Of a stretch of 64,000 nt of DNA, positions 3,157 through 63,953 are shown in pieces (the first letter of the stretch is position 1; each line of letters opens with the position of its first letter). The DNA lies in NCBI GenBank assembly GCA_964482995.1, contig CAYZZC010000002.1:1074-65073 (forward strand), read 5' to 3'. The translations under genes and the position numbers were made by a program. The notes under the pieces are model-generated. The model had not been told where the DNA came from, made no database searches, and saw only the letters and a program-made list of their open reading frames with translations. This DNA is from an uncultured Candidatus Saccharibacteria bacterium. GTDB taxonomy: Bacteria; Patescibacteriota; Minisyncoccia; Phycocordibacterales; SBAW01.

Positions 3157-3202
3157 GGTGGGTGTTGAAACTATCCTAACATTTACTAGGTTTAAAAGGT
3201 AA

Positions 3203-3228: not shown

Positions 3229-3266
3229 GAGTCAATTTATATAAGTATTTACATTGTTTATAAATA

Positions 3267-3992: not shown

Positions 3993-4004
3993 TAGTATTT
4001 CTCT

Positions 4005-4301
4005 ATGTCTAAAGAGACCATAGTTGCAGTGCTCGGCATATGGGTGATAGTTGTCCCTTATTTAGGCTTCCCGAGCTCGTGGAAAACAGTTATTTTTGTT
4101 CTCTCCGGTTTTGCTGTTATGATAGTCGGTTTCTTTTTGAGAGCAGAGGCTCTCGCGCGCTTGTCTGGCCAAGGCAAGGAAGCATCTTTCGCTCGTAGAA
4201 CATTCGTAGAAAACCAGCCCGCTGTCCAGGCAGGCTCTGCACCCTCTCTGTCGGATCAGCAAGGCCATGAGCGAAAAGAAAAAATCAACTCACTTAATTA
4301 A
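4005..4301 (+). CDS. Small membrane protein (2 predicted TM helices), hypothetical
   Basis: Hydrophobic segments IVAVLGIWVIVVPYLGF and VIFVLSGFAVMIVGFFL. Overlaps the next gene start by 35 nt. Confidence 0.4.
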   Translation: MSKETIVAVLGIWVIVVPYLGFPSSWKTVIFVLSGFAVMIVGFFLRAEALARLSGQGKEASFARRTFVENQPAVQAGSAPSLSDQQGHERKEKINSLN

Positions 4302-6539: not shown

Positions 6540-6541
6540 GA

Positions 6542-24596: not shown

Positions 24597-24604
24597 ACAT
24601 CTAT

Positions 24605-25438: not shown

Positions 25439-25441
25439 CTT

Positions 25442-27465: not shown

Positions 27466-27466
27466 T

Positions 27467-48215: not shown

Positions 48216-49100
48216 ATGAAAGAAACCCCAGACATTTCTATAGTGGTTTTAAATTGGAATACTTCATACCTGCTTACAAGAGCACTTGAGTCTATTATTT
48301 CTGCAGCAGGCGATATCAACTATGAAGTTATTGTGATCGACAACGCCTCGACCGACGGGGGGTTTAAGCATGTGCCAGAAAATATCCGTCATAATCCTCG
48401 TTTTACTTTCATACAGAACGAAAAGAATTTAGGATGGGCGGCTATCAATATCATGCTTGAGCAATCGCATACAAAATACATTGCGACCATAGATCCTGAT
48501 GCACTTCTTCGTCCAGGCGCACTCCAATCTCTCTATAGGTTTATGGAAGAGCACCCAGAAGCGGGAGCAGCAACAGCGTCACTTTTTAATCCAGATGGTT
48601 CCCCTCAGCTCTATTATCGTCGTATCATGACGCCCTCGATATATTTCTTCACTACGATTATCGGGAGAGTTATCGATAAATACCTGCTTAACCTCAGGCG
48701 TTGGAAACAATATCGTTATGAAGACCTTAATATTAATGTCCTTTCAGAAGTAGAGCAGCCAGCATGGCCATGCCTTATGTGGCGGCGCGAAGCACTTGGC
48801 ACATATATCGTTGATGAACAAATCCCTTTTTATTTTCTTGACGTTGAGATGAGTAGGAGCTTGTATAACCGAGGATATAAAATATATCTTGTACCCGACG
48901 CTACGATTACCCACCTCAAGTCGACCTCCTATAATAAGAAAGAAAGCTCATGGCGTCGGAAGGAGTATAACCGCAGCCTTATGGTATATTTTAAAAAGCA
49001 CTATCCATTTTCTGCTCCATTGGTATGGGTTGCAGCATGGATCGACCGAGCACTCAGAGCCTTGTCCCGAGCTTTTCTTGGCCGAGAACCGTTGCGATGA
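48216..49100 (+). CDS. Glycosyltransferase family 2
   Basis: ISIVVLNWN...VIVIDNASTDG and IDPDAL (DxD) motifs. Confidence 0.75.
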   Translation: MKETPDISIVVLNWNTSYLLTRALESIISAAGDINYEVIVIDNASTDGGFKHVPENIRHNPRFTFIQNEKNLGWAAINIMLEQSHTKYIATIDPDALLRPGALQSLYRFMEEHPEAGAATASLFNPDGSPQLYYRRIMTPSIYFFTTIIGRVIDKYLLNLRRWKQYRYEDLNINVLSEVEQPAWPCLMWRREALGTYIVDEQIPFYFLDVEMSRSLYNRGYKIYLVPDATITHLKSTSYNKKESSWRRKEYNRSLMVYFKKHYPFSAPLVWVAAWIDRALRALSRAFLGREPLR

Positions 49101-50332
49101 ATATGGAAGATTGTATTTATAAGACAACCTGTCGGGTGTGCGAAGGAAGCGGCCTTGTTGAGGTGCTTAACTTAGGTTCAACTCCGCCTGCAAACGCATA
49201 TCTTAGCCAAGAAGATTTGGATAAGCCAGAAAAATATTTTCCTTTGGTTCTATATTTTTGTCGGACTTGCTCACTCCTTCAGTTACGCCATGTGGTGAAC
49301 CCTGAGATCCTCTTTAAGGATTATCATTTTTTAACTGGCGCAAGCTCACCCTCAGTCGCACATTTTAAGGAGTATGCCGAAAAAGTGATATTGCCACTTA
49401 TTACTTCGCCTAACGATCTTTTAATAGATATCGGCGGCAATGACGGCGTTCTGCTCAGTTATATAAAGGATAAAGCTCGCGTACTCAATGTTGACCCGGC
49501 TGACAACCTCGCCTCCATTTCAGAAGAGAGGGGTGTGCCATTTTATCCGGCGTTTTTTACATCACAAACAGCGGACGAGCTGCTAGAGAAATTTGGTGAA
49601 GCAAAAGTGGTGACCGCAAACAACGTGTTTGCTCACACGGACCCTATTCGAAATGTGTTCGAGGGAGTAGCAAAACTTATTGGTGAAAATGGTACGTTTA
49701 TATTTGAAGTTCATTGGGCGAAGCATCTTGTAGATGAAAGCGCTTTCGACCAGATATATCACGAGCATCTTTGTTTTTACTCGCTGCACGCACTAAAAAT
49801 GTTAGTAGAAGGGGCGGGTATGCAGATATTTGATGTTGAGATAGTCCCGGCACAAGGCAAGTCGCTGCGTGTCTATACTGCGAAGAGCCGCGCGCCAAGC
49901 GAAAACGTTACTCGCGTTCTTGCTGAGGAAAAAGCTGCAGGGCTCACAAACGAAGCAACTTACCACGCGTTTGCACAACATGTGGAAGAAAATAAAAAGA
50001 AGGTTGTCTCACTACTCAAAGAGCTAAAAAGCAAAGGTAAAAAAATAGTGGGCTATGGCGCCCCAGCAAAGAGCAACACACTCCTTAATTATTATGGTGT
50101 CGGCAAAGAAACACTCGACTATTTAACTGACACGACAACTCTCAAGCAAGGGCTCTTTAGTCCTGGGACACACATACCAATCGTCTCTCCAGATAGGCTT
50201 TTGACTGATACTCCAGATTACATACTACTTCTCGCATGGAACTTTAAAGACGCTATTTTAGAGAAAGAAAAAGCGCTTCGAGCAAAGGGCGTAAAATTTA
50301 TTGTCACTGTGCCTAGAGTAGAAATTATATAA
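49097..50332 (+). CDS. NDP-hexose C-methyltransferase family (TylC3/EvaC-like) with N-terminal zinc-binding domain
   Basis: CRVCEGS...CRTC Cys4 motif, LIDIGGNDGVLL SAM motif, and a C-terminal HLCFYSLHAL...VYT block of the C-methyltransferase family. ATGA overlap with the GT2. Confidence 0.7.
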   Translation: MNMEDCIYKTTCRVCEGSGLVEVLNLGSTPPANAYLSQEDLDKPEKYFPLVLYFCRTCSLLQLRHVVNPEILFKDYHFLTGASSPSVAHFKEYAEKVILPLITSPNDLLIDIGGNDGVLLSYIKDKARVLNVDPADNLASISEERGVPFYPAFFTSQTADELLEKFGEAKVVTANNVFAHTDPIRNVFEGVAKLIGENGTFIFEVHWAKHLVDESAFDQIYHEHLCFYSLHALKMLVEGAGMQIFDVEIVPAQGKSLRVYTAKSRAPSENVTRVLAEEKAAGLTNEATYHAFAQHVEENKKKVVSLLKELKSKGKKIVGYGAPAKSNTLLNYYGVGKETLDYLTDTTTLKQGLFSPGTHIPIVSPDRLLTDTPDYILLLAWNFKDAILEKEKALRAKGVKFIVTVPRVEII

Positions 50333-50381
50333 TGTTCGCTAGTTGTGTTACAACAATTGTTCTGACACAGTTGTAATATCT

Positions 50382-52268
50382 ATGCCTCTCCAAAACGAGA
50401 AAAATATTATTCTGCTTTCTGAGATAGGGCAGCTACCGGCCCTTGAGCATTTTTTGGGAGAGCACCCAGAGATCGTCTCAGAAGGCTATACGTTAATTCC
50501 GATTGATATTGAGATCGAGAATGTGCTAATGGAAAAAGGCATTCCTTTTGTCTCTGGACGAGAGTATCGCACGCGAGACGCCGACTTTATGGTGCTCGCC
50601 GAAGAGTGGCCACGAGCCCTGTTTGAGAGCAAAGACTGGTTGTTCTTCTCGTATCGCGGTGTGTCACTTTCTCAACTGTACTTTCTTTCAGTGCAATGGT
50701 ATCTCTCCCATCTTCTATACTACGCAGATATTGTTGCAAATGTGATTCATAAACATATTGGATTGAAGCGACTAGTTGTATTTCCTGCTCCAGACGGTAC
50801 ACCCCCAATGGGAAGTGTCCTCGTTGCGCGTCAAATTCATGCTTTTGTAGACGCAGCGGAATGTATAGGGCGAGCTGGTGGCGTAGAAGTGATTGTTCAG
50901 AATATTGATTCAGCACTCAAAAATGAAATTCGCTCCGCATCATTTACTTTAAAACGAGGCCTTTTTAGTGTTGGAATATTGCTTCTTAATATCATTGTTG
51001 CCTCGATGCGTTCAAAACGAGAGATCAGTATTCTTGCAAGTGACTATTGGAAAAATCTAGAACCGTATATAAAAAACCTGCCTGCCGAGATTATGCTTAT
51101 CGATCGGCAGGAAGCTTTTAAAGCAGGGATAAAAAATATATGGAAGTACCGGATGCGCTTCGTGCATCCTGACTCGTTTAGAGAATCAGTCCAGGAGGAA
51201 CAAAGCACGGCTAGAGAAAATATTGCAAGACAGTGGAGTTTGCTTAAACAGCAAGGCACAATGCCCACTTTTGAGTTTAGAGGGTTTTCTCTTCGACCAC
51301 TTTTTGTGCAGGCGCTTGAGGCTATTATTAGAGACGTTCTAGAAGAACGGCTTGAAGATATCGATGACACACACGCAATGCTCAAGCGTTTGAAACCACA
51401 AGTTGTAGCTTTGCGCGCGACAGTCAGTACCCAGACACACTTTGTTATTTTGGCACAAGTGGCACGCGCACAAGGCATACCATCGATAGAGATGCAGCAT
51501 GGTTTTGAGTACTACGGCCCCGGTTCGGTGAGTAAACGTCACCGTAGCGAATACACAGGTGTATATGGCCCACTCACCGCGCGGCAACTTGCTGAGGTTG
51601 GTGACAACGACACTACTCCAGTAATAATCGGCTCCCCACGTTTTGATGTATATGCGTCGCTCAGAGACGCTGGCGCAAACAAAAAATCAACAGGACGAGT
51701 CACTGTGCTGTGTGTTGCCCCTGCGGTAGACCCGGGCGGAGACTTTGACACATATGAGACAGAGGAATTTTTTAAGACGATTGCCAATGCAGCAACGCAC
51801 ATTCCTAACATTCATGTAATCGTCAAGCGTCGCCCGGGACCCAACAGAGATGAATGGTATCTTTCAATGATTGCCTCGTTATTCTCAACTATTTCTCATG
51901 AGGTTGCACAGTTTGAACCATTTGCAGAGCTCTACCCATGCGCCGACATCGTAATCTCTTGCTACTCAACTGCAGCCATCGAAGCAATGCAATGCGGTAA
52001 GCCACTTATCTATCTCGGTGTCTCTCCAGAGCAGGCAATGATGGGGGTGCATCATTTCTCATACTACGCTAGTCAAGGCGCAATGATGATCGCCACCACT
52101 GAGGCAGAACTAAGCACCGCTCTCGTATTTCTTGTAAGAGACCAACATGCACGCGCAGAAGTATCAAAACACGCGGTGGCGTTTCTGGACCGGGAGTATG
52201 CATTCGACGGGCGCGCCAATGAGCGTGCGGCCGAATTAGTTCGCTCACTCGCTGCGAGCAAAAGGTAG
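50382..52268 (+). CDS. Large capsule/teichoic-acid-type polymerase-like protein (CDP-glycerol glycerophosphotransferase/Capsule_synth-like C-terminal domain)
   Basis: C-terminal ADIVISCYSTAAIEAMQCGKPLIYL resembles the TagB/TagF pattern ADxLITDYSSvxFDFLLLDKPIIFY. N-terminal 300 aa unassigned. Confidence 0.45.
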   Translation: MPLQNEKNIILLSEIGQLPALEHFLGEHPEIVSEGYTLIPIDIEIENVLMEKGIPFVSGREYRTRDADFMVLAEEWPRALFESKDWLFFSYRGVSLSQLYFLSVQWYLSHLLYYADIVANVIHKHIGLKRLVVFPAPDGTPPMGSVLVARQIHAFVDAAECIGRAGGVEVIVQNIDSALKNEIRSASFTLKRGLFSVGILLLNIIVASMRSKREISILASDYWKNLEPYIKNLPAEIMLIDRQEAFKAGIKNIWKYRMRFVHPDSFRESVQEEQSTARENIARQWSLLKQQGTMPTFEFRGFSLRPLFVQALEAIIRDVLEERLEDIDDTHAMLKRLKPQVVALRATVSTQTHFVILAQVARAQGIPSIEMQHGFEYYGPGSVSKRHRSEYTGVYGPLTARQLAEVGDNDTTPVIIGSPRFDVYASLRDAGANKKSTGRVTVLCVAPAVDPGGDFDTYETEEFFKTIANAATHIPNIHVIVKRRPGPNRDEWYLSMIASLFSTISHEVAQFEPFAELYPCADIVISCYSTAAIEAMQCGKPLIYLGVSPEQAMMGVHHFSYYASQGAMMIATTEAELSTALVFLVRDQHARAEVSKHAVAFLDREYAFDGRANERAAELVRSLAASKR

Positions 52269-52322: not shown

Positions 52323-53087
52323 ATGCTAAATAGCTATAATTTAAAGCGAAAAACAGTCCTTGTGACTGGCGCATGCGGGCAAATTGGCCAGGCATTGGTG
52401 CTAGCGCTCCTTAAAAACGGTGCATATGTCTATGGCGTTGATGTGGTGCCCGCGGTTGACTCCAAGTTTAAAAAGCTCTTAGCGCCCTACGCTCGTCGCT
52501 TTTCATACATTGCAGCAGATATTACCAGCGAGCGCAAAATTAAAGCAATGCTACGCGCTCTCAAGCGCCCAGTAGATGTGCTTATCAACTGTGCCGGGGT
52601 CGGTGTCTATACACCGTTTGAGAAGCGCACCGAGGAAGAACTCGACCGCGTCATAAACCTCAACCTAAAAGGCACGATCTTTATGTCCAAGGCCATTTCA
52701 AAAGACATGGCAAAGAGAAAGAAGGGCACTATCATAAATTTCGGTTCGGTTTATGGTGTGGCAGTGCCGGACTTTCGCATCTACGGCGACTCTGGCAGAA
52801 ACAGTTCTGAGATTTATAGCGCAACAAAAGCAGGCATTATACATCTGACAAAATATCTGGCTGTCTATTTGGCGAAGCATGGGGTTAGGGTTAACGCTAT
52901 TTCCCCTGGAGGTGTATTTAACAACCAGGCAGACTTTTTTGTGAAAAATTACGAATATAAGACGCCGATTGGTCGTATGGCTACGCCGGATGATCTTGTG
53001 GGAGCCATACTGTTTTTAGCCTCAGACGATGCTCGTTACATAACCGGGCAAAATATTGTTGTAGATGGAGGATTCACCTTATGGTAA
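52323..53087 (+). CDS. SDR-family oxidoreductase
   Basis: VLVTGACGQIGQAL, NCAGVG, YSATKAGI. Confidence 0.8.
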   Translation: MLNSYNLKRKTVLVTGACGQIGQALVLALLKNGAYVYGVDVVPAVDSKFKKLLAPYARRFSYIAADITSERKIKAMLRALKRPVDVLINCAGVGVYTPFEKRTEEELDRVINLNLKGTIFMSKAISKDMAKRKKGTIINFGSVYGVAVPDFRIYGDSGRNSSEIYSATKAGIIHLTKYLAVYLAKHGVRVNAISPGGVFNNQADFFVKNYEYKTPIGRMATPDDLVGAILFLASDDARYITGQNIVVDGGFTLW

Positions 53088-55501
53088 AACGAGCGAAGGA
53101 AAAAACAGATAAAAGACGCAAAGCGTTTGTCATTGGAGCCGGCATGAGCGGGCTCTCTTCTGCTTTGCGTATGGCTGAGCTCGGGCTCGATGTCACGCTG
53201 TTTGAGAAGGACGGAGTTGTGGGTGGGATGGCAGGTTCATTTGCCTGGGGGGAGTTTCCTCATATGGACCACGGCCCACACATCTTTCATACCCCAGACG
53301 AACGTCAGGCAAAGATTTGGGACACTGAGTACGGCGATTTATTTTATAAAAACGAATTCTGGGGCAAGAACGTCAAGGGGGAAAGGTTCGATGAATACTA
53401 CGATTATCCGCTTTCGCTCGAGTCGCTCAAGAGTTTTCCTGCCAAGCTTCGTACACAGGTTTTGGAGGAGATAGGGAAGCTCGACGAAACCCGCAAAGCA
53501 GAGGCAAAGAGTTATCGCGAGTATGTGCTCGAGCTTGTGGGCCCAACACTCACAGAGATGTTTTTTATCCGTTACCCTGAAAAACTATGGGGAGTCTCGG
53601 TTGACGATATGACTCCCAATTGGGCACCTAAGCGAGTTAATTTCCGCAGAGCGAAAGGGCACTTTCACGCAGGGCAGTGGAGCGCGGTAGGTAAATATGG
53701 CGCGGGCAGGGTCTTGGAGCGTATGGCAGAGAAATTTACTGCGGTTGGTGGCACCTTGCGTCTCAATACTGCACTTACTGGGATTGAAAAGAAAGACAAC
53801 ATCATTACTTCTCTCGTGTTTGGTAAAGAGAAGATCGTAGTAGGGCCAAATGATCACGTTGTTTCTACCATGCCACTTCCCGTGCTTGGCGAACTCTTGG
53901 GTGTGCACAATAAGCTTAAATATCGTGGGGCAAAGCTTATTTTTATTGCCGCAAAGAAAAGCCAAGCCATAAAGGGCAAGCCGAGTTTCTTGTACTATGA
54001 TGATCCTAATATCATCTTCCACCGCGTCAGCGAGCAGAAAAAGTTTTGTCCGGTTGGATTCCCTAAAAACAAGACCGTGTTGACGGTTGAAGTTGCTTTT
54101 ACCCTCGGGGACGAACGCGACAAGACTTCTGAAAAAGCGTTTATCGAACGCGTAACCAAAGACCTTATAAAAGTAGGTCTGCTTAAGAAAGGCGAGGCTT
54201 GTGATGGCAAAATGGTCTCGCTGCCGTATGTGTACCCCCTTATGGTAAAAGGTGTTGAAGATGAACTAGCTCAAGTACGCTCAAAAATAGCGGCGTTTAA
54301 GCAGCTCCACCTTATTGGCACCGGCGGCGACTACCACTATGCAGACCTGCAGATCCTTGCGGTAAAGGGGCGCGACTTAGGAGAGCGGCTTGCAGGAAAA
54401 AATGAGCTGGAAAGTAAAGAACTCCGCAAAGATATACAAACACACTCTTTTAATACAGAAGTGCAGCTTGGTGCACACACAGTCAAATATGGTGCACCAG
54501 CGTTTATTATCGCCGAAGTCGGTCTCAACCATAACGGGTCAGTAGTGCTTGCAAAGAAGCTGATAGACGCGGCTAAAGAAGCCGGAGCATCGGCAGTCAA
54601 ATTTCAGAGTTATCGCGCAGAGAGCCGACTCTCTAAAAAAGTAAAAGAGAATCGTTATGCTGAGGAGTTGGTGGACACCGAGGAGTCGACCTTCAAGATG
54701 TTGAAGCGCCTCGAGTTTGGACTTAAAGAACATAAGGAGCTTTTTGCCTATGCACGTAAAGTGGGTATTCCTATTTTTTCTACCCCGTTTGATATTGAGA
54801 ATGTTGAATTACTTGAGTCTCTCGGTACGCCCTTTTATAAAATCGCCTCGATGGACGTAGTTAATTTGCCGCTCATTAAGCGAGTAGCCCTGACAGGGAA
54901 GCCGATCATTATGTCGACCGGTATGTCGACGCTCTCGCAGATCGACGACGCGGTCGGCACAGTGCGCGGCGCAGGGAACAAAAATCTTGTACTACTCCAA
55001 TGTGTTTCCTCCTACCCAGCTGCAGCAGAGGACATGAACTTGCGCGCAATGAAAACGCTTCATAAAACATTTGGTGTGCCTGCCGGCTTCTCTGACCATG
55101 CTATTGGCCTTACCGCCTCTGTGGTCGCGCTCTCGCTTGGGGCTGTGGTAATCGAGCGGCACTTTACGCTCGATAGGTTTATGGAAGGGCCCGACCATAT
55201 ACTTTCTTCTGATCCAAAAGAGTTGAAAGAGCTTGTGCGATTGAGCCGCACTATACCGCTTATAAAAGGTAAAGGACAAAAGATTATTGTGGGGAGCGAG
55301 GTTGAGACGATAAATAAATTTAAAAAAGGTCTCTACGCAAAAGTAAATATAAAAAAAGGGCAGAAGATTACAACTGAGATGCTTACGATCAAAGGTCCAG
55401 GTGGAGCGATTCTACCTAAATTTATGGACATGGTAGTGGGTAAAACCGCTCACGAAGCGATCTCTGCAGATTATCCGATCCTTTGGGACCATGTTGTATG
55501 A
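53081..55501 (+). CDS. Fusion protein: N-terminal UDP-galactopyranose-mutase-like FAD oxidoreductase domain plus C-terminal NeuB-family synthase (N-acetylneuraminate/pseudaminate synthase-like) with SAF domain
   Basis: N-terminus AFVIGAGMSGLSSA...GGMAGSF...HGPHIFHTPD matches the Glf dinucleotide and HIFHT motifs. C-terminus has PAFIIAEVGLNHNGS, LLQCVSSYPAAAEDMNLRAM, GFSDHAIGL and a SAF-type tail. 806 aa. Confidence 0.7.
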   Translation: MVKRAKEKTDKRRKAFVIGAGMSGLSSALRMAELGLDVTLFEKDGVVGGMAGSFAWGEFPHMDHGPHIFHTPDERQAKIWDTEYGDLFYKNEFWGKNVKGERFDEYYDYPLSLESLKSFPAKLRTQVLEEIGKLDETRKAEAKSYREYVLELVGPTLTEMFFIRYPEKLWGVSVDDMTPNWAPKRVNFRRAKGHFHAGQWSAVGKYGAGRVLERMAEKFTAVGGTLRLNTALTGIEKKDNIITSLVFGKEKIVVGPNDHVVSTMPLPVLGELLGVHNKLKYRGAKLIFIAAKKSQAIKGKPSFLYYDDPNIIFHRVSEQKKFCPVGFPKNKTVLTVEVAFTLGDERDKTSEKAFIERVTKDLIKVGLLKKGEACDGKMVSLPYVYPLMVKGVEDELAQVRSKIAAFKQLHLIGTGGDYHYADLQILAVKGRDLGERLAGKNELESKELRKDIQTHSFNTEVQLGAHTVKYGAPAFIIAEVGLNHNGSVVLAKKLIDAAKEAGASAVKFQSYRAESRLSKKVKENRYAEELVDTEESTFKMLKRLEFGLKEHKELFAYARKVGIPIFSTPFDIENVELLESLGTPFYKIASMDVVNLPLIKRVALTGKPIIMSTGMSTLSQIDDAVGTVRGAGNKNLVLLQCVSSYPAAAEDMNLRAMKTLHKTFGVPAGFSDHAIGLTASVVALSLGAVVIERHFTLDRFMEGPDHILSSDPKELKELVRLSRTIPLIKGKGQKIIVGSEVETINKFKKGLYAKVNIKKGQKITTEMLTIKGPGGAILPKFMDMVVGKTAHEAISADYPILWDHVV

Positions 55502-56529
55502 AAAAGGCCATTGAAGCAGCCCTTAAAAAAATAAAGAAAAATGCGCGTGGCCGAACCACTGCGTTTGTGATAGGCAACACCTCCGATCTTTTTTTGCAGG
55601 ATCGATTTTATGAGACGCCGATGCGCGAAACACCAGAGCTAATTTATAGTGGCGTTATTGTACGCGATGTTGTCACAGCCTGCGCTGTTGCGCGGCTAGT
55701 TGATGACAAGGTCGACTATGTTTTTGTCGACGATGAAAAAAAGGTACGTAAAATGTATTACGGAGCGAATGATGTTGGCAATATAGAGAAGGCTGTGCGG
55801 AATATTGTTGCACAATCGACCCTCCTTACCTACAAGGGCAATGACATCACGGTTGAAGCAGTCGATGCTCTGGTGTGTAACTTGGTGTCAGAGGTTAGTG
55901 GGACCCGAATTGCGATAATCGGCATGGGGAACTTTGGCTCAAAAGTGGCACTTAAATTAGTTGAGCGTGGTGTCCATATCAATGCGTATCGTCGCGACCA
56001 AAACAAACTTCGTACAATATGTACTGGGCTCAACCAGATCAAATCGAAAGATACTATTTCAAAAATTATTCCTGCAAAAAGTATTGTCGCAGCATGCAGG
56101 GGTGCCGAGATTGTAATTGGTATCACAAATGAAAAAGGTGTCATCAAAAAAGCGATGCTCAAACATGCAGCGCCTGGGGTTATTTTAATTGACGCAGGTA
56201 AGGGGTGTTTTGCTGAGGAAGTGGCGCAAGATCTATCACATCTTATCTACCGAGTTGATGTATCGATTATACAGAAACACATATTTCTCGGGCTTATCCA
56301 TGCGCGCGAGCATATGCAGAAATCTCTTGGGCGACGGCATATCCAAAAATTAGGAGGCACTATTATTTCAACAGGTCTTCTTGCACAACGGGGAGAAATT
56401 GTTGTTAATGATATTAAACGCCCCACTGTGGTTGTGGGTATAGCAGCCAAGGGTGGCGTGCTAGAGAGAAACACTCCGCACATACAAAAACAGATTGCAG
56501 AGATAAAGAAGTTTTTTAAGATAAAATAA
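55498..56529 (+). CDS. NAD(P)-binding Rossmann-fold protein, function unknown
   Basis: RIAIIGMGNFGSKVALKLVERGVHI dinucleotide-binding motif. ATGA overlap with the neuB fusion. Confidence 0.45.
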   Translation: MKKAIEAALKKIKKNARGRTTAFVIGNTSDLFLQDRFYETPMRETPELIYSGVIVRDVVTACAVARLVDDKVDYVFVDDEKKVRKMYYGANDVGNIEKAVRNIVAQSTLLTYKGNDITVEAVDALVCNLVSEVSGTRIAIIGMGNFGSKVALKLVERGVHINAYRRDQNKLRTICTGLNQIKSKDTISKIIPAKSIVAACRGAEIVIGITNEKGVIKKAMLKHAAPGVILIDAGKGCFAEEVAQDLSHLIYRVDVSIIQKHIFLGLIHAREHMQKSLGRRHIQKLGGTIISTGLLAQRGEIVVNDIKRPTVVVGIAAKGGVLERNTPHIQKQIAEIKKFFKIK

Positions 56530-56533
56530 GCAC

Positions 56534-57289
56534 ATGGCAACCATCGCTATTATCCAGGCGCGCATGAGCTCGACCCGGCTCCCCGGCAAAATACTTTTTG
56601 AAATTGCACCAGAAAAAACGATACTCTCGTGTATGCTTGAGCGCGTTGCTGCCAGTAAAGAAATCGACAAAACGATTATCGCCACTACGACGAATCCTAA
56701 AGACCAGGTGCTTGTTGATTATTTAGAGAAGGCAGGCCAGCCGTATTATGTCGGGAATGAGAATGACGTGCTCGACCGCTACTACCAAGCAGCGCTTGTT
56801 CATGGCGCAAAGCAGGGAGACATTATTGTGCGCATGACATCAGACTGCCCGATAATCGACCCCAAGGTTATCGACGAGACAATACAATTTTTTAAATCAG
56901 GCGACTTTGATTACGCCTCCAACAACCTTGAGCCATACACCTACGCAGACGGCATGGATACAGAAGTTTTTTCTTTTAATACTTTAGAAAAAACATGGAA
57001 GGAGGCGACGATCCCCGCACACCGTGAACACGTAACGTTTTATATGTGGAAGAATCCGAACATCTTTAAAATTGGTCAATATAAAAACCATAAGCCCAAC
57101 CAAGCTGGGTATCGTCTCACGATCGATTACTCTGTCGATTACGAATTGCTCAAAGAGGTGTATAAAAATCTGTATCCAAAAGACCCGCTTTTTAGTAACG
57201 ACATGATTGTGGAGTTTTTGAATCAGCATCCCGAAGTAAAAAACCTCAATAGCGAAACCGAGCGCAACAAGTCCTGGAAGGCCGCATAA
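56534..57289 (+). CDS. CMP-sugar synthetase, acylneuraminate/pseudaminate cytidylyltransferase family (NeuA/PseF/SpsF-like)
   Basis: IAIIQARMSSTRLPGKIL is the family N-terminal signature; MTSDCPIID follows. Confidence 0.8.
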   Translation: MATIAIIQARMSSTRLPGKILFEIAPEKTILSCMLERVAASKEIDKTIIATTTNPKDQVLVDYLEKAGQPYYVGNENDVLDRYYQAALVHGAKQGDIIVRMTSDCPIIDPKVIDETIQFFKSGDFDYASNNLEPYTYADGMDTEVFSFNTLEKTWKEATIPAHREHVTFYMWKNPNIFKIGQYKNHKPNQAGYRLTIDYSVDYELLKEVYKNLYPKDPLFSNDMIVEFLNQHPEVKNLNSETERNKSWKAA

Positions 57290-57349: not shown

Positions 57350-57859
57350 TTAGGTTGCAGAGGCGGGAGTTACGTTTAACCGTCGCAGTAGATCGCGAAC
57401 GATCCTATCGTAGGCCGGGCGGAAGACCGAGGCCTCTTGATCGTTAGGACTGCTGATCACTCTCACCATCGTAGCGAGTTGATCCCACTCAGGTCCTATA
57501 CCGAGATGGCTGAAGGCCATCTCTACTTCGTTGTACCGAGCTTCCGGCTGTAAAGGGAGCAGCTTGATTTGTGTGGCGAAACGGCTAACGTCTCCACCAG
57601 ACATAGTAACCCACTTCTCTTCATGTGGACCATTGAAGAGTCTGCTAATGCGGCCCTGCTTTTGTAGGTAGGCTGGTGTCGCATAATAGCCACGCATCCG
57701 CATAAAAGTGTTTTCAGCTGTTGCAACCCCACAAGGTAGCGCATAGCTGTGCACCTCCCATTTTCGCTCAGGTGTTTCCTGGAAAGTTGCCGCAGCGCGG
57801 AACGCATCCAGAATCTCTCGGCCCGTACATGTACGGGGCAGAGTTAATTTGATCGACAT
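57350..57859 (-). CDS. Hypothetical protein (169 aa), stand-alone unit
   Basis: GGAG RBS 9 nt upstream of the ATG on the minus strand, terminator downstream, GC3-rich codons. No recognisable motif. Confidence 0.45.
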   Translation of the reverse strand: MSIKLTLPRTCTGREILDAFRAAATFQETPERKWEVHSYALPCGVATAENTFMRMRGYYATPAYLQKQGRISRLFNGPHEEKWVTMSGGDVSRFATQIKLLPLQPEARYNEVEMAFSHLGIGPEWDQLATMVRVISSPNDQEASVFRPAYDRIVRDLLRRLNVTPASAT

Positions 57860-57992: not shown

Positions 57993-59309
57993 ATGCAACA
58001 CAAGGGCCAAAAGCTGTGGAAGCGGGCTAAGAAGCTGATCCCTGGTGGCAATCAACTTCTTTCAAAACGTGCGGAGATGTTTTTACCTGAGCAATGGCCG
58101 GCGTACTTTTCTAAAGTAAAAGGACCCTATATTTGGGACCTTGACGGTAAAAAATATCTCGATATGTCGATCATGGGTATCGGCGCATGCCCGCTTGGCT
58201 ATGCTGACCCCGACGTAAATAAAGCGGTAAAAAAAGTGGTTGAGCGCGGCTCCATGGCGACGTGGAACACGCCAGACGAAGTAGAGCTCGCAGAGGTGCT
58301 CATCAAGATCCACCCATGGGCAAGCATGGTGCGCTACGCACGCACGGGCGGCGAGTCGATGGCTATCGCCTCGCGCATCGCACGTGCTTACACTGGCCGC
58401 GACGTGATCGCCTTTTGCGGCTACCACGGCTGGAGCGACTGGTATCTTGCGACCAATCTTAAAGACCCGAAGGGTCTCAACGAGCATTTACTTGCAGGGC
58501 TCGAGCCGAGAGGTGTGCCAAAAGGGCTACGTGGCTCGATCCTTCCGTTTCGATATAATCGCATTGAAGAGTTAGAACAAATTGTAAAACATACCAAAGG
58601 TAAACTCGCTGCAATAATCATGGAGCCGATACATGGCGATGAGCCAAAAGATGATTTTCTTAAAAAAGTTCGCGCAATCGCAGATAAGGCCAGTGCGGTA
58701 CTTATTTTTGACGAAATCTCAATCGGTTTTAAAGAAACTATTGGCGGCTCGCATCTTCTTTATAAAGTTACTCCTGACATCGCGGTGTTCAGCAAGGGTA
58801 TGAGCAACGGCTACCCGATGGCGGCTATTATCGGCAAAAAAGAGGTGATGCAAGCTGCACAAGACACGTTTATCTCAAGCACCTACTGGACCGAGAGTAT
58901 TGGGCCCGCAGCTGCGCTTGCAACGATTAAAAAAATGCAGAAATATAATGTGCCAAAACATCTGGTTTCAATAGGGGAAGCTGCGAACAAAGGGCTAGAA
59001 AGACTCGCAAAGAAGCACGGTATTGCTATAAAAATAGGGGGTACTTCGACCATGGGATATTTCTCGTTTGATTACGGCAAAGAGAGCAGTGCAGTGCGCA
59101 CGCTCTTTACCCAGGAGATGCTCAAGCGAAAGATTCTTGCGGCAAACCGCTTTTATCCGTCATACGCACACACAAAAAAACATCTCGATATCTATTTTAA
59201 GGCGCTTGACCAGGTATTCTCCATTATGAAAAAAGCGATCGATAAAGGTACAATCGAGAAACAACTTAACGGGCCAGTTGCGCACTCAGGCTTTGAGCGG
59301 CTTAACTAA
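57993..59309 (+). CDS. Class-III PLP-dependent aminotransferase (glutamate-1-semialdehyde aminomutase-like)
   Basis: LIPGGNQLLSKR, DLDGKKYLDM, FDEISIGF and a VFSKGMSNGYP PLP-lysine region. Confidence 0.8.
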   Translation: MQHKGQKLWKRAKKLIPGGNQLLSKRAEMFLPEQWPAYFSKVKGPYIWDLDGKKYLDMSIMGIGACPLGYADPDVNKAVKKVVERGSMATWNTPDEVELAEVLIKIHPWASMVRYARTGGESMAIASRIARAYTGRDVIAFCGYHGWSDWYLATNLKDPKGLNEHLLAGLEPRGVPKGLRGSILPFRYNRIEELEQIVKHTKGKLAAIIMEPIHGDEPKDDFLKKVRAIADKASAVLIFDEISIGFKETIGGSHLLYKVTPDIAVFSKGMSNGYPMAAIIGKKEVMQAAQDTFISSTYWTESIGPAAALATIKKMQKYNVPKHLVSIGEAANKGLERLAKKHGIAIKIGGTSTMGYFSFDYGKESSAVRTLFTQEMLKRKILAANRFYPSYAHTKKHLDIYFKALDQVFSIMKKAIDKGTIEKQLNGPVAHSGFERLN

Positions 59310-59369: not shown

Positions 59370-60254
59370 ATGGAACTTGATAATAGTGTCGGCAATCTAA
59401 AATATTTTTCAAAATATTTTATACCCGCAACCGCGTGTAATTTGTGTGGCTCGACAAAAAGAGTTGAGTGGGCAAAGAGCGATCCAATAACCGCTTATCA
59501 ATGTGACAATTGCGGCCTAATTTATCACGATCCTCAGATGACTAGAGAGGGGCGAGATGCTTTTTATGCGAGCGGTTATTTTGAGCTCCAGAACAATTCT
59601 GCTGATGCAGCGGCTCGCGATAAAATGTACGAAGTTGAAATTACCTATCTAGAAAAATATATTAAAGGAGGAAAGATATTAGATGTTGGTTGTGGGGGAG
59701 GATTCCTGCTCAATAAGTTTGGCACTTCATGGGAAAAGCATGGTATTGAGTTTGACCACACCTCTGCAGAACATGCCCGTACTGCGCTGCATCTTAATGT
59801 AAAAGATGGTGAGGTAGATGAGGCATCTTATCCAGAGGGATTTTTTGATGTGATTGTTATGCGTGGTGTTATTGAGCACATGGCAGATCCAAAAACCATG
59901 CTCAAACACATGATGCCATGGCTCAAACCAGGAGGGCTATTGTACATAACCTCTACACCAAATATAGAGAGCCTTTGTGCTGAGTTGTATCGAGAAAAAT
60001 GGAAACTCTTTACTGCGGATCATCAAATACATTTTTCAAAGCGCACCATTGTTGAGTTGGGTAAGGAACTTGGTATGGAGCTTCTCGATTCAGCATATTT
60101 TTATTTGGAAACGCCTTATGCTCATGAGATTGAAGATTATAGAAAGATAATCAAAGACGCCACTCTTTTCGCTCTTGGGGAGGGGGACAAAGTGGTTTCC
60201 TCTCCCGCGTTCTATGGCAATATGCTCAGCATGATTCTTAAAAAAAATCTCTAA
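59370..60254 (+). CDS. Class I SAM-dependent methyltransferase with N-terminal zinc ribbon
   Basis: CNLCGS...CDNCG, then ILDVGCGGGFLL motif I. Confidence 0.7.
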   Translation: MELDNSVGNLKYFSKYFIPATACNLCGSTKRVEWAKSDPITAYQCDNCGLIYHDPQMTREGRDAFYASGYFELQNNSADAAARDKMYEVEITYLEKYIKGGKILDVGCGGGFLLNKFGTSWEKHGIEFDHTSAEHARTALHLNVKDGEVDEASYPEGFFDVIVMRGVIEHMADPKTMLKHMMPWLKPGGLLYITSTPNIESLCAELYREKWKLFTADHQIHFSKRTIVELGKELGMELLDSAYFYLETPYAHEIEDYRKIIKDATLFALGEGDKVVSSPAFYGNMLSMILKKNL

Positions 60255-60264
60255 TTATCTCCAG

Positions 60265-62049
60265 ATGCGAATTCTAGAAACTATACAAGTGCTGTATACA
60301 AGCTTCAGCCGATATCGGTGGCACATGCTTGTGCTTGTAGTGCTTGGGTTTTTGGGTGCTGTTTTGGAGGGTATCGGCGTCAATGCTGTAATTCCGCTCA
60401 TCTCTTTTTTTACAGGCGGAGGAGGTGAGACATCTACTGACCTTATCACGACCACTATTCGCGGTTTTTTTGGTTTTCTATCTATTCCGTTCACTTTTCG
60501 GTATCTACTTGGATTTATCTTGACTCTGTTTATATTGCGCGCAGTAGCGGTCGTTGCGTTTGGCTATATCCGCGGATGGGTCACTACCGATTATCTATGT
60601 GATGAGAGCGAGTCTATGCTGCGCCACACCATGCTTGCTTCGTGGCCGTTTTTACTCAAACAAAAACTCGGCACGCTTCACAGCGTGCTTGTGCGCGACA
60701 TACAACGATCTTCTGCTCTGTTGGAGATTGTGGGGCAAATTATCCAGTCGTTCAGCGGATTTGTCATGTATCTTTTGGTAGCGATCAATATTTCTCCTAT
60801 CACCACGCTTTATACCCTCATCGGGGGGGCGGCACTTGTCCTCTTTGGCCGCCCTTTTCTCATCAGAAACCGTCGCACCGCGGATTTGGTCATACAACAG
60901 GAAAAATCTTTTTCTCAATTTTTAGGCGAGCATATCATAGGGACAAAATCTATAAAGGCCGCTGGGGTAGAGCGTCTCGCGATACGACAGGGTAATACGT
61001 ATCTGCGTGCGCTTCGCACCCTGTCGCTTAGGATGGCACTCATTCGTTCAGGGAGTGCAAGTATGTTCCAACCCTTCAGCCTTATTTTCGTGATTATTCT
61101 TTTTACGGTCTCGTACAAGTCTCCTGGTTTTAGCATCGTCTCTTTTGGCGCAACGTTGTATCTTATACAAAAAATATTCACCTATTTAGAGTCTGGTATA
61201 AACGCGCTCCATAGTGTAAATGAGACCCTGCCGTATGCAAAAAGCCTCACCTCTTATAAAAAGATGTTAGAGGACCACCGTGAAGAAAAAGTGATAGGCA
61301 CAGCGCCCATGGTATTTAAGCAGCAGCTCGCATTTGAAAATGTATCATTTTCATACAATGGCGACACTGCGGTGCTTTCTTCCATCTCATTTGCTCTTCC
61401 ACGCGGGCAGACGGTAGGACTTATCGGGCCCTCGGGAGCTGGCAAGACCACCGTGGCCGACCTTTTGCTGAGGCTTTTCGAACCAACTTCAGGCCAAATC
61501 ACATTGGATGGTGAACCCATTGCAAACATTTCTGTCGACGAGTGGCGTAAGCATGTGGGCTACGTTTCGCAAGATGTCTTTTTGCTTAACGATTCTATTG
61601 CAGAAAACATTCGCTTCTACAGCAAAGACATTTCAAAAGAGGATATTATCACTGCTGCAAAACAGGCGAATATCTACGAGTACATCATGTCTCTACCGGA
61701 AGGGTTTGAGACAACGGTCGGCGACCGCGGGGTGCTGCTCTCCGGCGGCCAGCGCCAGCGCGTGGTTTTAGCGCGCGCTCTGGCGCGTAAACCGGTATTC
61801 CTTATCCTTGACGAAGCAACCTCAGCACTCGACTCGGAGTCGGAAAAGCTTATCCAAGAGTCGATACGCACACTCCACGGCAACGTGACCGTGTTTGTTA
61901 TAGCGCACCGTCTCTCGACTATCGAAAATGCTGACATGCTCCTTGTGCTCGAAAACAAGCAACTAAGCGAGGTCGGTGCGCCCGAGGAGTTGCGCAAAAA
62001 CCCAAACTCCTACTTTGTAAAGCACCACGATCGCCACAAAACACAATAG
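60265..62049 (+). CDS. ABC transporter, fused permease/ATP-binding exporter (MsbA/type I exporter-like)
   Basis: 6-TM N-terminal domain, Walker A GPSGAGKTT, ABC signature LSGGQRQR, Walker B FLILDEATSALD, H-loop AHRLST. Confidence 0.85.
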   Translation: MRILETIQVLYTSFSRYRWHMLVLVVLGFLGAVLEGIGVNAVIPLISFFTGGGGETSTDLITTTIRGFFGFLSIPFTFRYLLGFILTLFILRAVAVVAFGYIRGWVTTDYLCDESESMLRHTMLASWPFLLKQKLGTLHSVLVRDIQRSSALLEIVGQIIQSFSGFVMYLLVAINISPITTLYTLIGGAALVLFGRPFLIRNRRTADLVIQQEKSFSQFLGEHIIGTKSIKAAGVERLAIRQGNTYLRALRTLSLRMALIRSGSASMFQPFSLIFVIILFTVSYKSPGFSIVSFGATLYLIQKIFTYLESGINALHSVNETLPYAKSLTSYKKMLEDHREEKVIGTAPMVFKQQLAFENVSFSYNGDTAVLSSISFALPRGQTVGLIGPSGAGKTTVADLLLRLFEPTSGQITLDGEPIANISVDEWRKHVGYVSQDVFLLNDSIAENIRFYSKDISKEDIITAAKQANIYEYIMSLPEGFETTVGDRGVLLSGGQRQRVVLARALARKPVFLILDEATSALDSESEKLIQESIRTLHGNVTVFVIAHRLSTIENADMLLVLENKQLSEVGAPEELRKNPNSYFVKHHDRHKTQ

Positions 62050-62135: not shown

Positions 62136-63953
62136 ATGCCTAAGCGCTTTGTACTTGTGGCTCGCAAGCCACCAATTGAACCGCTCGGACTGCACTATCT
62201 GGATGAAATCCCTCGCCAAGTCGGCTGGGACTCAAACATTGTTCTCATCGAGAACAACAACTTTGAACCTCTCTTTGAGATAATCCGTGCCAAAAAGCCG
62301 GACATGGTTGGTTTTCATGTGTGGGCGGGATATCACCTGCCCATGCTTGCAGCTGCCGACACTGTCCGTGCGCTCGGTATCCCCGTAATTATGGGTGGGC
62401 CTTACCCTACCTATGCTTACGACAAGTGTGTTCCTCATGCAGATTGGGTGATCCGCTCAGGCGGGTTCAGGTTACTCAAGCAAGCGCTTGAGGGCTCGCT
62501 CAAAAAAGGTGTCCACTTTGACATCACTGCCCGGTACGAAGGGTTCCCGATTCCAAGCCGGGAAACTATCTATGGGGCATATCCTGAGTACGGGAAATCT
62601 CCTATCAAGAGCATCTTTGGTTCAGAGGGGTGTCCCTATAAGTGCTCATACTGTCATGCGCCTGAAAAGAATAAGATGCATGGCGGCTTCGATGCTTTCT
62701 TGCGCCCTATCGGCGATATTGTTGCCGAAGCGCAGATTGTCATGCGAGGCTGGCCAGAGACAAAGTTGTTCTATTTTCAGGACGACATTTTTGGCTTCGA
62801 CGAGAAAGTCTGGCTCCCAGAGTTTGCAAAACGCTGGAAGCAGGAAGTTGGCGTCCCGTTCCATTGCCAAATGAGGCTCGAGATGACTCGGCACGCGTCT
62901 GGCGATGCGCGGCTCGACCTCTTTGTCGAGGCGGGTTGTAGCGGCATCACGCTTGCTATCGAGTCTGACAATGAGTTCCTCAGGGATCAAGTGCTCTTCC
63001 GGTCTATGCCGGACCATCTGATCCTAGAGGGTTGCAAGAAGATAATGGATCGCGGGATGACACTGCGCACGGAGCAGATCCTTGCCGTGCCGTTTAGCGA
63101 TATCACGACCGACTTGGGGACACTCGACCTCAACAACCGCATCAACCCGACAATGGCGTGGACTTCTATCCTTTCTCCGTATCCCGGAGTTCCAATCGGC
63201 ACGATCGCCAAGAACTTCGGGTTGTGGGAGGGGACCGATGACGACCTCAAGGAACTCTTCTTTTATGAGAGCGTCCTCAAACACGTTAAGGGAGGACCGC
63301 GAGTTATCGAGCAGATTGTGCGGGCCCTCCCGCACGATCAACAAAAAGACGCCCTGCTTCGGATGACAACCGCAAACCGGACCGGACATACGGCTGACGT
63401 CTATTATCAGCACGTAAAGAAGGAAAAAGTTGGCAAGGCCACGTTTGTGGTCAATGTCGGTAGCCCTGAGCGTGTGGGAGCTATCGAATATTTGTCACCC
63501 GAGGAGAACGACCTATATTGCAAGTCTACAGTCCGCCTCCAGAATTTGTTTATGGGCCTCGCTAAGATGCCCAAAGCAAAAGAGTTGGGAGGCAAGCTCG
63601 TCGCGCTCACCGCGGACGAGTGGGCTTGGAAGCGTATCGGCGAGGTTACCACCGCTCATCTTTTGGAGGTGGTACCCGCTGCTGTGCTTGAGGGCCGATC
63701 ACATGCGCTCGCGCGTGAAATGGGCTTTTCCTCACCAGAGGAGTTTCCCAAATCGATCGCTCAAAACCCGCATTACTTCACCTACTTTCCTTCATCAGGG
63801 ATGTTGGCGAAGAAGATTGTTAAGCAACGTGTGTTTGGTCCTGGGCGTTCCACAAAAGACTCGCTCCACGACCTTGCTACTATTGTGCGGCGGCATCTCT
63901 TTGACCTTGGGCTCTACAAGGTTGTGGAGAGTTTGCCGCCGATCGCGGCCTGA
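62136..63953 (+). CDS. B12-binding-domain radical SAM protein
   Basis: N-terminal cobalamin-binding-like Rossmann segment (VGFHVWAGYHLPMLAAADTVRALGIPVIMGG), CxxxCxxC cluster GCPYKCSYC, and FQDDIF/TLAIESDNE radical-SAM core elements. GC3-rich. Confidence 0.65.
   Translation: MPKRFVLVARKPPIEPLGLHYLDEIPRQVGWDSNIVLIENNNFEPLFEIIRAKKPDMVGFHVWAGYHLPMLAAADTVRALGIPVIMGGPYPTYAYDKCVPHADWVIRSGGFRLLKQALEGSLKKGVHFDITARYEGFPIPSRETIYGAYPEYGKSPIKSIFGSEGCPYKCSYCHAPEKNKMHGGFDAFLRPIGDIVAEAQIVMRGWPETKLFYFQDDIFGFDEKVWLPEFAKRWKQEVGVPFHCQMRLEMTRHASGDARLDLFVEAGCSGITLAIESDNEFLRDQVLFRSMPDHLILEGCKKIMDRGMTLRTEQILAVPFSDITTDLGTLDLNNRINPTMAWTSILSPYPGVPIGTIAKNFGLWEGTDDDLKELFFYESVLKHVKGGPRVIEQIVRALPHDQQKDALLRMTTANRTGHTADVYYQHVKKEKVGKATFVVNVGSPERVGAIEYLSPEENDLYCKSTVRLQNLFMGLAKMPKAKELGGKLVALTADEWAWKRIGEVTTAHLLEVVPAAVLEGRSHALAREMGFSSPEEFPKSIAQNPHYFTYFPSSGMLAKKIVKQRVFGPGRSTKDSLHDLATIVRRHLFDLGLYKVVESLPPIAA

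Follow-up and report, generated by a model that had tools for sequence, protein, structure and literature searches.

Introduction

What does a flavoenzyme domain resembling uridine diphosphate (UDP)-galactopyranose mutase (UGM) do when it is joined to a NeuB-type ulosonic acid synthase, and which sugar does the joined protein help to make? The question is raised by a gene in a 64,000-nucleotide stretch of an uncultured Candidatus Saccharibacteria bacterium (assembly GCA_964482995.1, contig CAYZZC010000002.1, positions 1,074 to 65,073, forward strand), hereafter the window, in which an earlier reading made from the letters alone (the sequence-only reading) had noticed such a fusion. Sialic-acid-like sugars, among them N-acetylneuraminic acid (Neu5Ac), pseudaminic acid and legionaminic acid, shape how hosts, phages and neighbours perceive bacteria. 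To our knowledge all known bacterial routes to these sugars share one logic and one set of enzyme families, and in each of them NeuC, LegG or PseG releases the aldose from its nucleotide immediately ahead of the synthase step. We are confident that the fusion is a genuine bifunctional enzyme and the core of a conserved module that makes a cytidine monophosphate (CMP)-activated 3-deoxy-2-ulosonic (sialic-acid-like) sugar for surface or flagellin glycosylation without this canonical NeuC/LegG/PseG step.

Architecture of the fusion

The gene and its parts, all on the forward strand of the window, are:

53081..55501, + strand: UGM-like/NeuB fusion gene, 806 amino acids (aa), an uninterrupted open reading frame (ORF) with an ATG start
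53081..54400, + strand: predicted UGM-family flavin adenine dinucleotide (FAD) domain of a fusion-specific clade, residues 1-440
54401..54460, + strand: interdomain linker of about 20 residues, predicted disordered, residues ~441-460
54500..55282, + strand: NeuB-type phosphoenolpyruvate (PEP):aldose condensing (ulosonic acid synthase) barrel, residues 474-734
55331..55498, + strand: SAF (antifreeze-like) C-terminal domain, residues 751-806

In the N-terminal half, Pfam places NAD_binding_8 at residues 17-74 (1.7e-13), Amino_oxidase at residues 22-364 (8.6e-17) and, marginally but above threshold, GLF (PF03275) at residues 161-340 (3e-07, 30.8 bits against a cutoff of 26.3). The C-terminal half carries NeuB (PF03102) at residues 494-734, with all 241 model positions covered (4.6e-90), and SAF (PF08666) at residues 751-806 (7.8e-08). 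The GxGxxG, GG and HIFHT motifs that had been claimed for the flavin domain are all present in the translation, as G19-A-G-M-S-G24, G48-G49 and G65-P-H-I-F-H-T71. An AlphaFold model of the fusion (predicted local distance difference test, pLDDT, 82.9) matches PseI and NeuB in its C-terminal half and UGMs in its N-terminal half; pLDDT is below 50 at residues 441-453 of the linker, the columns of which are poorly conserved in the fusion alignment. The description of the ORF as a Glf-like flavin domain followed by a complete NeuB and a SAF domain is borne out by translation, Pfam and fold matches alike.

Occurrence of the fusion

A frameshift in sequencing or assembly could have joined two separate genes, and such errors do happen in assemblies of this kind: in two loci from metagenome-assembled genomes (MAGs), L013:3910-6222 and L077:9983-12240, the fusion gene is itself split. 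Those breaks lie inside the N-terminal domain and not at the domain boundary, and are probably due to sequencing error or pseudogenisation. Six contigs that were assembled independently carry the identical protein (100%, P0001). Among 5.8 billion protein sequences, 707 homologues were found at E <= 1e-10, the best 120 of which were inspected and are all fusions of ~795-806 aa with an identical Pfam set, down to 46% identity; a search from a divergent member added 120 further fusions. The total exceeds 200 distinct full-length fusions, clustered separately and spread over many phyla, isolate genomes included, and the linker is in frame. The search for the same fusion that the sequence-only reading had suggested was therefore richly answered.

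Further evidence came from 80 loci, collected by scanning species-representative genomes with a profile of the N-terminal domain alone. This domain is joined to NeuB in all 80. Over 57 of the loci, pairwise identities of the N- and C-terminal domains correlate with r = 0.89, so the fusion has evolved as one unit. No unfused version of the N-terminal domain occurs among the 80 loci, and three shorter representatives (P0249, P0255, P0275) come without genomic context; a plasmid collection yielded just stand-alone relatives (22-27% identity) and ordinary glf genes. In view of the six contigs, the more than 200 fusions and the 80 of 80 loci we reject an assembly artefact, the probability of which is vanishingly small. 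The fusion is a widespread, co-evolving unit and not a peculiarity of this window.

The closest relatives of the window protein (61-76% identity) belong to Paceibacteria, Kaiserbacteria and "Saccharibacteria" MAGs of the Patescibacteria. Other carriers are Omnitrophota, Elusimicrobia, Nitrospirae, Planctomycetes and Terriglobia, as well as Magnetococcales and other magnetotactic bacteria, lineages in which the family is enriched; marine carriers include SAR11, SAR116, SAR86, Prochlorococcus and Synechococcus, and Aliarcobacter and Aliiglaciecola are cultured carriers. One Nitrososphaerales archaeon MAG (L028, JASLOE010000028.1, positions 2231-7514) holds the fusion together with a Rossmann gene and a NeuB-cytidylyltransferase gene, through either inter-domain transfer or a binning error. 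Full-text literature searches found no publication describing a UGM-like/NeuB fusion, and a large NeuB phylogeny makes no mention of fusions or FAD (PMC8208679).

The synthase domain

The NeuB domain is 32-38% identical to the solved NeuB, PseI, SpsE and Leptospira NeuB. Its sequence matches in the PDB are 6ncs, 8h2c, 1vli and 1xuu (E 1e-47 to 1e-52), and its fold matches are 8h2c, 1xuu and 6ncs. With NeuB (N. meningitidis 1xuu), PseI (C. jejuni 8h2c), LegI and SpsE (1vli) the fusion shares the full barrel plus SAF domain, the latter aligning with the C-terminal domains of PseI and SpsE, and the metal- and PEP-binding residues. E479, K507, Q509, K587, H673, E692, H694 and D705 are invariant in 24 fusions and lie within motifs shared with NeuB, PseI and SpsE; we take E25, K53, Q55, H215 and H236 of N. 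meningitidis NeuB (1XUZ) to be the counterparts of the fusion's catalytic residues. With this set invariant, a barrel that had lost its NeuB catalytic residues can be dismissed.

The fusion differs from these enzymes in its added 440-aa N-terminal flavin domain, and from NeuB also in K771, a lysine in place of a SAF-domain arginine that presumably contacts the N-acetyl group. It scores below both relevant equivalog cutoffs, with 361.0 bits against 399.65 for TIGR03569 (NeuB/LegI) and 309.2 bits against 340.25 for TIGR03586 (PseI), so the accepted sugar cannot be read from homology. We assign the domain, on its profile scores and alignment, to a distinct synthase subfamily. The remark that NeuB-family enzymes are normally stand-alone is roughly true, with exceptions in a described Leptospira NeuB-phosphatase fusion (PMC3438082) and in NeuB-cytidylyltransferase fusions at 14 of our loci (see below).

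The conserved module

The genes that surround the fusion in the window are:

50343..52268, + strand: ~630-aa protein without a Pfam match, two genes upstream of the fusion
52323..53087, + strand: classical short-chain dehydrogenase/reductase (SDR), PRK09186/PtmA-like
55498..56529, + strand: Rossmann partner, 343 aa
56534..57289, + strand: CTP_transf_3 cytidylyltransferase, predicted CMP-ulosonic acid synthetase
57993..59309, + strand: class III (glutamate-1-semialdehyde-aminomutase-like) aminotransferase, accessory tailoring
59370..60254, + strand: S-adenosylmethionine (SAM)-dependent methyltransferase, accessory
60265..62049, + strand: ATP-binding cassette (ABC) exporter, MsbA-like, with fused transmembrane and ATPase domains
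62136-63953, + strand: B12-binding radical SAM enzyme, 3' of the module

Pfam confirmed the gene order that had been proposed, with an SDR upstream and a Rossmann protein, a cytidylyltransferase, a class III aminotransferase and a methyltransferase downstream. The SDR matches adh_short in Pfam, with 199.6 bits to NF006619 and 143.7 bits to FlagModPtmA, both below cutoff. Its end overlaps the start of the fusion by 7 nt (ATGGTAA). Of the 4-nt ATGA overlaps that had been claimed downstream, the one between the fusion stop and the Rossmann gene holds, given the true ATG start at 55498; between the Rossmann and cytidylyltransferase genes there is instead a 4-nt gap (TAA gcac ATG). The cytidylyltransferase is a clear member of PF02348 (3.9e-27, 95.9 bits against a cutoff of 22.6) with weak N-terminal KdsB-type matches in NCBIfam (at most 58 bits). 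The aminotransferase matches PF00202 (6.5e-48) and, below cutoff, PRK06209 (284 bits); the methyltransferase matches Methyltransf_23/11/12/25 and the exporter ABC_membrane plus ABC_tran.

For comparison across the 80 loci, ORFs within 9 kb of the fusion were clustered and counted. The most constant partner of the fusion is the Rossmann protein (~350 aa), found in 63 of the 80 and usually adjacent and co-directional, followed by any CTP_transf_3 cytidylyltransferase (61), SDR (44), epimerase/dehydratase (38), ABC exporter (34), DegT aminotransferase (24), NTP_transferase (23), class III aminotransferase (20) and methyltransferase (17). An aminotransferase of either the class III or the DegT type is present in 39 loci. 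Genes for nucleoside diphosphate (NDP)-sugar supply (NTP_transferase, GHMP kinase, epimerase/dehydratase, DegT) lie directly upstream of the fusion in many loci. The conserved module consists of the SDR, the fusion, the NADP-type Rossmann protein and the CMP-transferase, with a variable aminotransferase, methyltransferase and exporter.

In all 33 Rossmann proteins scanned, Pfam covers just the central NAD(P) domain. We regard the protein as a new two-domain NAD(P)-binding family, predicted to be translationally coupled to the fusion by the ATGA overlap; use of NADP(H) is suggested by its GxGNxG motif together with an Arg-Arg pair that comes after the second strand. Divergence of the Rossmann protein tracks that of the fusion (r = 0.66, Mantel p <= 0.001). 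In Nitrospiraceae the two genes form an isolated pair without an adjacent glycan gene cluster, the only nearby glycosyltransferase gene lying ~4 kb upstream among thiamine-biosynthesis genes. The pair is the minimal unit.

Two cultured carriers, Aliarcobacter butzleri and Aliiglaciecola sp., have a compact six-gene version in the order SDR, fusion, Rossmann, methyltransferase, PseF-like cytidylyltransferase and GFO/IDH/MocA oxidoreductase, directly beside Maf and flagellin genes; pse and leg genes were not found in its vicinity. With 158 bits, below the cutoff of 205.7, the Aliarcobacter cytidylyltransferase resembles PseF. In Campylobacter, Helicobacter and Aeromonas, Maf proteins are the transferases by which flagellin receives CMP-activated nonulosonic acids. 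The window has a different candidate for this step, the protein at 50343..52268, whose C-terminal 160 residues match NF046086 (1.8e-07) and TIGR04396 (2.3e-05), both far below cutoff, and whose gene is syntenic with the module in the Patescibacteria loci L006-L008 and L016. With its weak BFO_1060/TIGR04396 surface-carbohydrate-like character, it is a candidate ulosonic-acid transferase. In view of the Maf and flagellin contexts and of this candidate, the module very probably produces a CMP-activated ulosonic acid destined for attachment to a surface protein or glycan.

The cytidylyltransferases are of more than one class. In 14 of the 80 loci the enzyme encoded 3' of the Rossmann gene carries a second, N-terminal NeuB-like domain (~585 aa in all; L040:13484-15235, L029:13500-15260, L058:7253-8995, L028:5742-7514), which is divergent and keeps the Glu, Lys, Gln, His, His, Asp catalytic set, so these modules have two apparently competent PEP-condensing domains. 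A cytidylyltransferase-reductase pair also recurs (related loci are L022:14974-15858, L062:8325-9275 and L091:14508-16156): in ten loci a PseF-like CTP_transf_3 of ~230 aa is followed by an aldo-keto reductase, ORFs for which occur in 17 loci; in Aliarcobacter and Aliiglaciecola the GFO/IDH/MocA oxidoreductase takes its place after the cytidylyltransferase. ORFs beside one cytidylyltransferase class that had been labelled "NeuBfam" are these aldo-keto reductases, drawn into the NeuB cluster by single-linkage chaining, and the label was rejected.

Missing canonical steps

Pfam scans of window ORFs of at least 150 aa detected no DegT, hexapeptide acetyltransferase, GNAT-PseH, Epimerase_2 (NeuC/LegG), Glyco_tran_28_C or PseG-type gene, and phmmer searches of all window ORFs with DegT and WecB seeds gave no match. 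The sequence-only reading had likewise recognised no PseB/PseC/PseH-type or NeuC-type enzymes here, and its suggestion of a non-canonical route agrees with the neighbourhood, which by Pfam and phmmer is that of a CMP-ulosonic-acid pathway lacking PseB/C/H/G, LegB/C/H/G and NeuC. Among the 80 loci, a WecB-seeded search found an Epimerase_2 homologue in one (L041), beside a stand-alone NeuB. Most loci cannot be explained as legionaminic-acid clusters minus LegG, an idea that was rejected with DegT in 24 of the 80 and clear hexapeptide acetyltransferases in about four (crude repeat scan).

The flavin domain

For residues 1-451 the top sequence matches among solved structures are all UGMs (3gf4 at 1.6e-10), a profile of the domain's family matches T. 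cruzi UGM over its full length (1e-21), and in Foldseek the modelled domain matches UGMs 4dsh and 3ukk at E ~1e-23 with a template modelling (TM) score of 0.76. With UGM (K. pneumoniae 3gf4, T. cruzi 4dsh, A. fumigatus 3ukk) it shares the fold, the FAD motifs, the histidine of GPHIFHT, RxxExK and YxYxD. G19-x-G21-x-x-G24, E42 and G48-G49 are invariant in the fusion alignments, and active-site positions can be paired with K. pneumoniae UGM by HMMER alignment: H67 and H70 with H60 and H63, Y165 and W170 with Y155 and W160, R185 with the mobile-loop R174, R315, inside the conserved RxxExK motif, with R280, and Y385, Y420 and D422 with Y314, Y349 and D351. We take R174 and R280 of the K. pneumoniae enzyme to be its diphosphate-binding arginines. 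R185, R315, Y165, W170, Y385, Y420 and H67 are kept in at least 96% of fusion-clade representatives; both arginines are conserved in all 25 fusion representatives, and H67 in 96% of the fusion clade and 96% of stand-alone relatives.

The likeness to UGM has limits. Identity is only ~16-25%, TIGR00031 gives 50.5 bits against a cutoff of 303.75, and the best NCBIfam models are the uncharacterised PRK07208.1-3 "hypothetical protein" entries (160 bits against a cutoff of 380), the domain being nearer this PRK07208-type "long" family and, unlike UGM, always NeuB-fused. Three of the four residues of the UGM tyrosine set are kept, Y185 having become F195, and nucleotide contacts are changed (T156 to P166, N270 to Y305); W80 and N97 are further differences from UGM. 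An exhaustive search of 1.8 billion cluster representatives with the domain gave an upper tier of about 40 top matches, nearly all fusions, and, below E ~1e-39, a lower tier formed by a large family of stand-alone relatives of 425-490 aa with 27-30% identity. W80, N97, P166, P183, F195, D422 and Q424 form the fusion-clade signature relative to these stand-alone proteins. By fold and active-site signature we assign the domain to the UGM family, as a clade of its own.

A generic amine oxidase is rejected for this domain because UGM-specific motifs and residues are conserved, and sequence, profile and residue comparisons all single out UGM. A more specific redox role was weighed separately, in which the flavin domain, as an oxidase or dehydrogenase, would tailor the acceptor or the finished ulosonic acid, for example by making a keto or aldehyde group for an aminotransferase. 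Oxidation followed by amination is known from the KdnB/KdnA route to 8-amino-Kdo (Kdo, 3-deoxy-D-manno-octulosonic acid). The fold is common to amine oxidases, protoporphyrinogen oxidase (PPO) and CrtI, which fits both the Amino_oxidase match and the PPO structure 3lov, scoring close behind the UGMs on the domain model; moreover, the two conserved arginines could bind a carboxylate rather than a diphosphate, and a class III or DegT aminotransferase is near the fusion in the 39 loci counted above. However, the best matches at the sequence level are all UGMs, with the GPHxxHT, RxxExK and YxYxD motifs, half of the loci, like the compact Aliiglaciecola module, have no aminotransferase, and the modules already hold three dedicated oxidoreductases (SDR, Rossmann, and GFO or aldo-keto reductase). 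We consider such a role unlikely; the kept UGM residues point to a reaction at the anomeric carbon of an NDP-sugar rather more than to redox tailoring.

If the chemistry is that of UGM, the domain could be a true NDP-sugar pyranose-furanose mutase that supplies a furanose donor and is fused to NeuB for co-expression or complex formation only. The largely kept UGM residue set, with the mobile-loop arginine that retains the nucleotide, would suit this role, and UGM homologues act on several NDP-sugars. The nearest stand-alone relatives (the PRK07208-type proteins) lie in glycosyltransferase clusters; those inspected include one inside such a cluster of Gloeothece. It is difficult to reconcile with this role that the clade's domain is NeuB-fused in every locus and its two halves co-evolve, that the fusion and Rossmann pair can stand apart from any glycan cluster with the nearest glycosyltransferase gene ~4 kb off, that the compact flagellin-island module has no obvious furanosyltransferase, and that the ligand-contact substitutions W80, N97, P166, D422 and Q424 indicate a changed substrate or chemistry. 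On balance a furanose-supplying mutase seems rather unlikely.

Proposed pathway

Because a hydrolase gene is missing, NDP-sugar genes lie upstream and the flavin of UGM breaks the same bond, we propose the flavin domain as the nucleotide-releasing step: it may break the anomeric bond of an NDP-sugar and hand the free aldose to NeuB, a reading that we hold tentatively, as quite possible though short of probable. With both diphosphate arginines, three of the four tyrosines and the flavin-proximal histidine kept, the domain would bind an NDP-sugar in the UGM manner, and N5 of the reduced flavin would displace the nucleotide at the anomeric carbon to give a flavin-iminium, open-chain sugar adduct. 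Instead of re-closing to a furanose nucleotide, this adduct would be hydrolysed to a free aldose, possibly after epimerisation at C2 via an enamine, and the fused NeuB domain would condense the aldose with PEP. The Rossmann protein could carry out an NADP(H)-dependent step, in which it would either tailor a keto or hydroxyl group of the sugar acid or maintain the flavin in its reduced state. The cytidylyltransferase would activate the product, which would be attached by a Maf-type transferase in proteobacteria or by a TIGR04396-like transferase in the organism of this window. Domain identities, conserved residues, the persistence of the fusion and its gene neighbourhoods are observed; what we infer in this scheme is the substrate, the order of the steps, release by hydrolysis and what the Rossmann protein does.

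Several points weigh against it. We know of no UGM-family enzyme for which a hydrolytic or epimerising outcome has been described, and by sequence such an outcome looks no different from the reaction of a true mutase, which would itself need the retained R185 to hold the nucleotide for re-attack; the residue fits that role equally well. The substitutions at P166 and Y305 leave the nucleotide, and even the class of ligand, uncertain. Neither a linear pathway nor any other reading weighed here explains the second intact NeuB-like domain in 14 loci, nor does the scheme contain a necessary role for the near-universal Rossmann partner. The predicted TM score (pTM) of the fusion model is 0.55, making its interdomain geometry unreliable as a guide to a shared interface; the channelled two-step synthesis suggested by the sequence-only reading, like its flavin-dependent ring contraction or redox tailoring, is a conjecture. 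The missing hydrolase is also less telling than it seems: the seven loci with precomputed Pfam annotation contain no NeuC/LegG- or PseG-type gene, though PseG was not searched for sensitively, and stand-alone NeuB genes in the same loci also have no adjacent NeuC-type gene, except in L041, so that the absence of NeuC is not specific to the fusion.

The flavin domain could alternatively act last, on the CMP-ulosonic acid, the phosphate and carboxylate of which would mimic a diphosphate, for instance in a contraction to a furanosidic CMP-sugar. The cytidylyltransferases near the fusion in 61 of the 80 loci would be in keeping with this order, the altered uridine-contact positions P166 and Y305 are compatible with another nucleotide, and furanosidic Kdo occurs in some capsules. 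We know of no chemical precedent for attack by flavin N5 on a quaternary ketosidic carbon, the fusion and Rossmann pair occurs without a nearby cytidylyltransferase, and fusions more commonly join consecutive steps of a pathway than its first and last. Action on the CMP-sugar is accordingly judged highly improbable.

Relation to known systems

If the proposed release of a free aldose is right, the flavin domain would be a functional analogue of the hydrolysing NDP-sugar 2-epimerases NeuC and LegG and of the UDP-sugar hydrolase PseG. The likeness would be one of function only, as those enzymes are cofactor-independent and GT-B-like, whereas the fusion domain is a flavoenzyme with no sequence or fold kinship to them. 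Mammalian GNE (UDP-GlcNAc 2-epimerase/ManNAc kinase) and the Leptospira NeuB-phosphatase (PMC3438082) are precedents for fusing enzymes that flank the synthase step, with other partner domains and chemistry; neither has a flavin. Flagellin islands of Campylobacter, Helicobacter and Aeromonas (pse/leg plus Maf) resemble the Aliarcobacter and Aliiglaciecola module, which likewise lies beside Maf and flagellin genes and has a PseF-like cytidylyltransferase, but this module is without PseB/C/H/G/I and LegB/C/H/G and has instead the SDR, fusion, Rossmann, methyltransferase and GFO/IDH/MocA genes.

Eighteen of the 80 loci have heptose-nucleotide genes (GmhA, HddA/HddC-like, HldE domains I and II) no more than 10 kb from the fusion, often adjacent to it. 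Prochlorococcus, whose lipopolysaccharide (LPS) is without heptose, is among these loci. Bacteria of the candidate phyla radiation (CPR) have no LPS, and two such genes are found in the window:

36181-36954, + strand: HldE/RfaE domain I-like (heptose-7-P kinase), 115 bits
36908-37420, + strand: HldE/RfaE domain II-like (heptose-1-P adenylyltransferase), 170 bits against a cutoff of 181.5, overlapping the domain I gene

These split HldE-like genes in an LPS-less CPR lineage point to an ADP-heptose-type precursor for another glycan. CMP-activated ten-carbon ulosonic acids have been detected by mass spectrometry in Magnetospirillum, with their genes unassigned (bioRxiv 10.64898/2026.04.20.719630), and a fusion that accepted NDP-heptoses would make ten-carbon ulosonic acids like these. 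That the fusion is a flavin-dependent entry into ulosonic acids, replacing NeuC, LegG or PseG, and in some lineages converts NDP-heptoses to ten-carbon CMP-ulosonic acids, is a long shot. B12-binding radical SAM genes lie next to the fusion in ten loci and rSAM-SPASM genes in 13; enzymes of this kind could C-methylate or otherwise extend the sugar, and may be relevant to the reported C10 ulosonic acids.

The module is a different and widespread solution, present in abundant marine bacteria, CPR, magnetotactic bacteria and the emerging pathogen Aliarcobacter butzleri, and couples a UGM-family flavoenzyme, in which the flavin normally acts as a nucleophile, to a C-C bond-forming synthase and an uncharacterised NADP-binding family. 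Solving it would reveal either a sugar not described before or another route to one already known, and probably new flavin chemistry. It would also correct the annotation of hundreds of genes that at present carry the names "N-acetylneuraminate synthase" or "FAD-dependent oxidoreductase" and offer targets and tools for flagellin and surface glycoengineering, and the cultured carriers make the question testable.

Other genes of the window

Between the cytidylyltransferase and aminotransferase genes, a 169-aa ORF on the reverse strand (57350-57859, - strand) has no family match, and loci L007 and L008, although syntenic in other respects, lack it. Further genes of the large glycan region, at 30986-34015, 38246-39949 and 41363-42823 (+ strand), encode a zinc alcohol dehydrogenase, both E1 subunits (alpha and beta) of a thiamine pyrophosphate (TPP)-dependent dehydrogenase, an FkbH-like protein and an MBOAT acyltransferase, a set that may indicate an unusual surface-polymer substituent of the acyl or glyceryl type. 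Methyltransferase genes are unusually dense at 23739-29350 and 49025-50332 (+ strand) and suggest heavily methylated sugars; three are of the FkbM type, one of which (627 aa) also carries a GT9-like domain, and another encodes a sugar C-methyltransferase of the TylC3 type that has a zinc-binding domain. At the edge of the glycan region (6542-9074, + strand) lies the gene of a TrwB/TraG-like type IV coupling-protein ATPase of 577 aa, and after it that of a protein with a lamin-tail domain.

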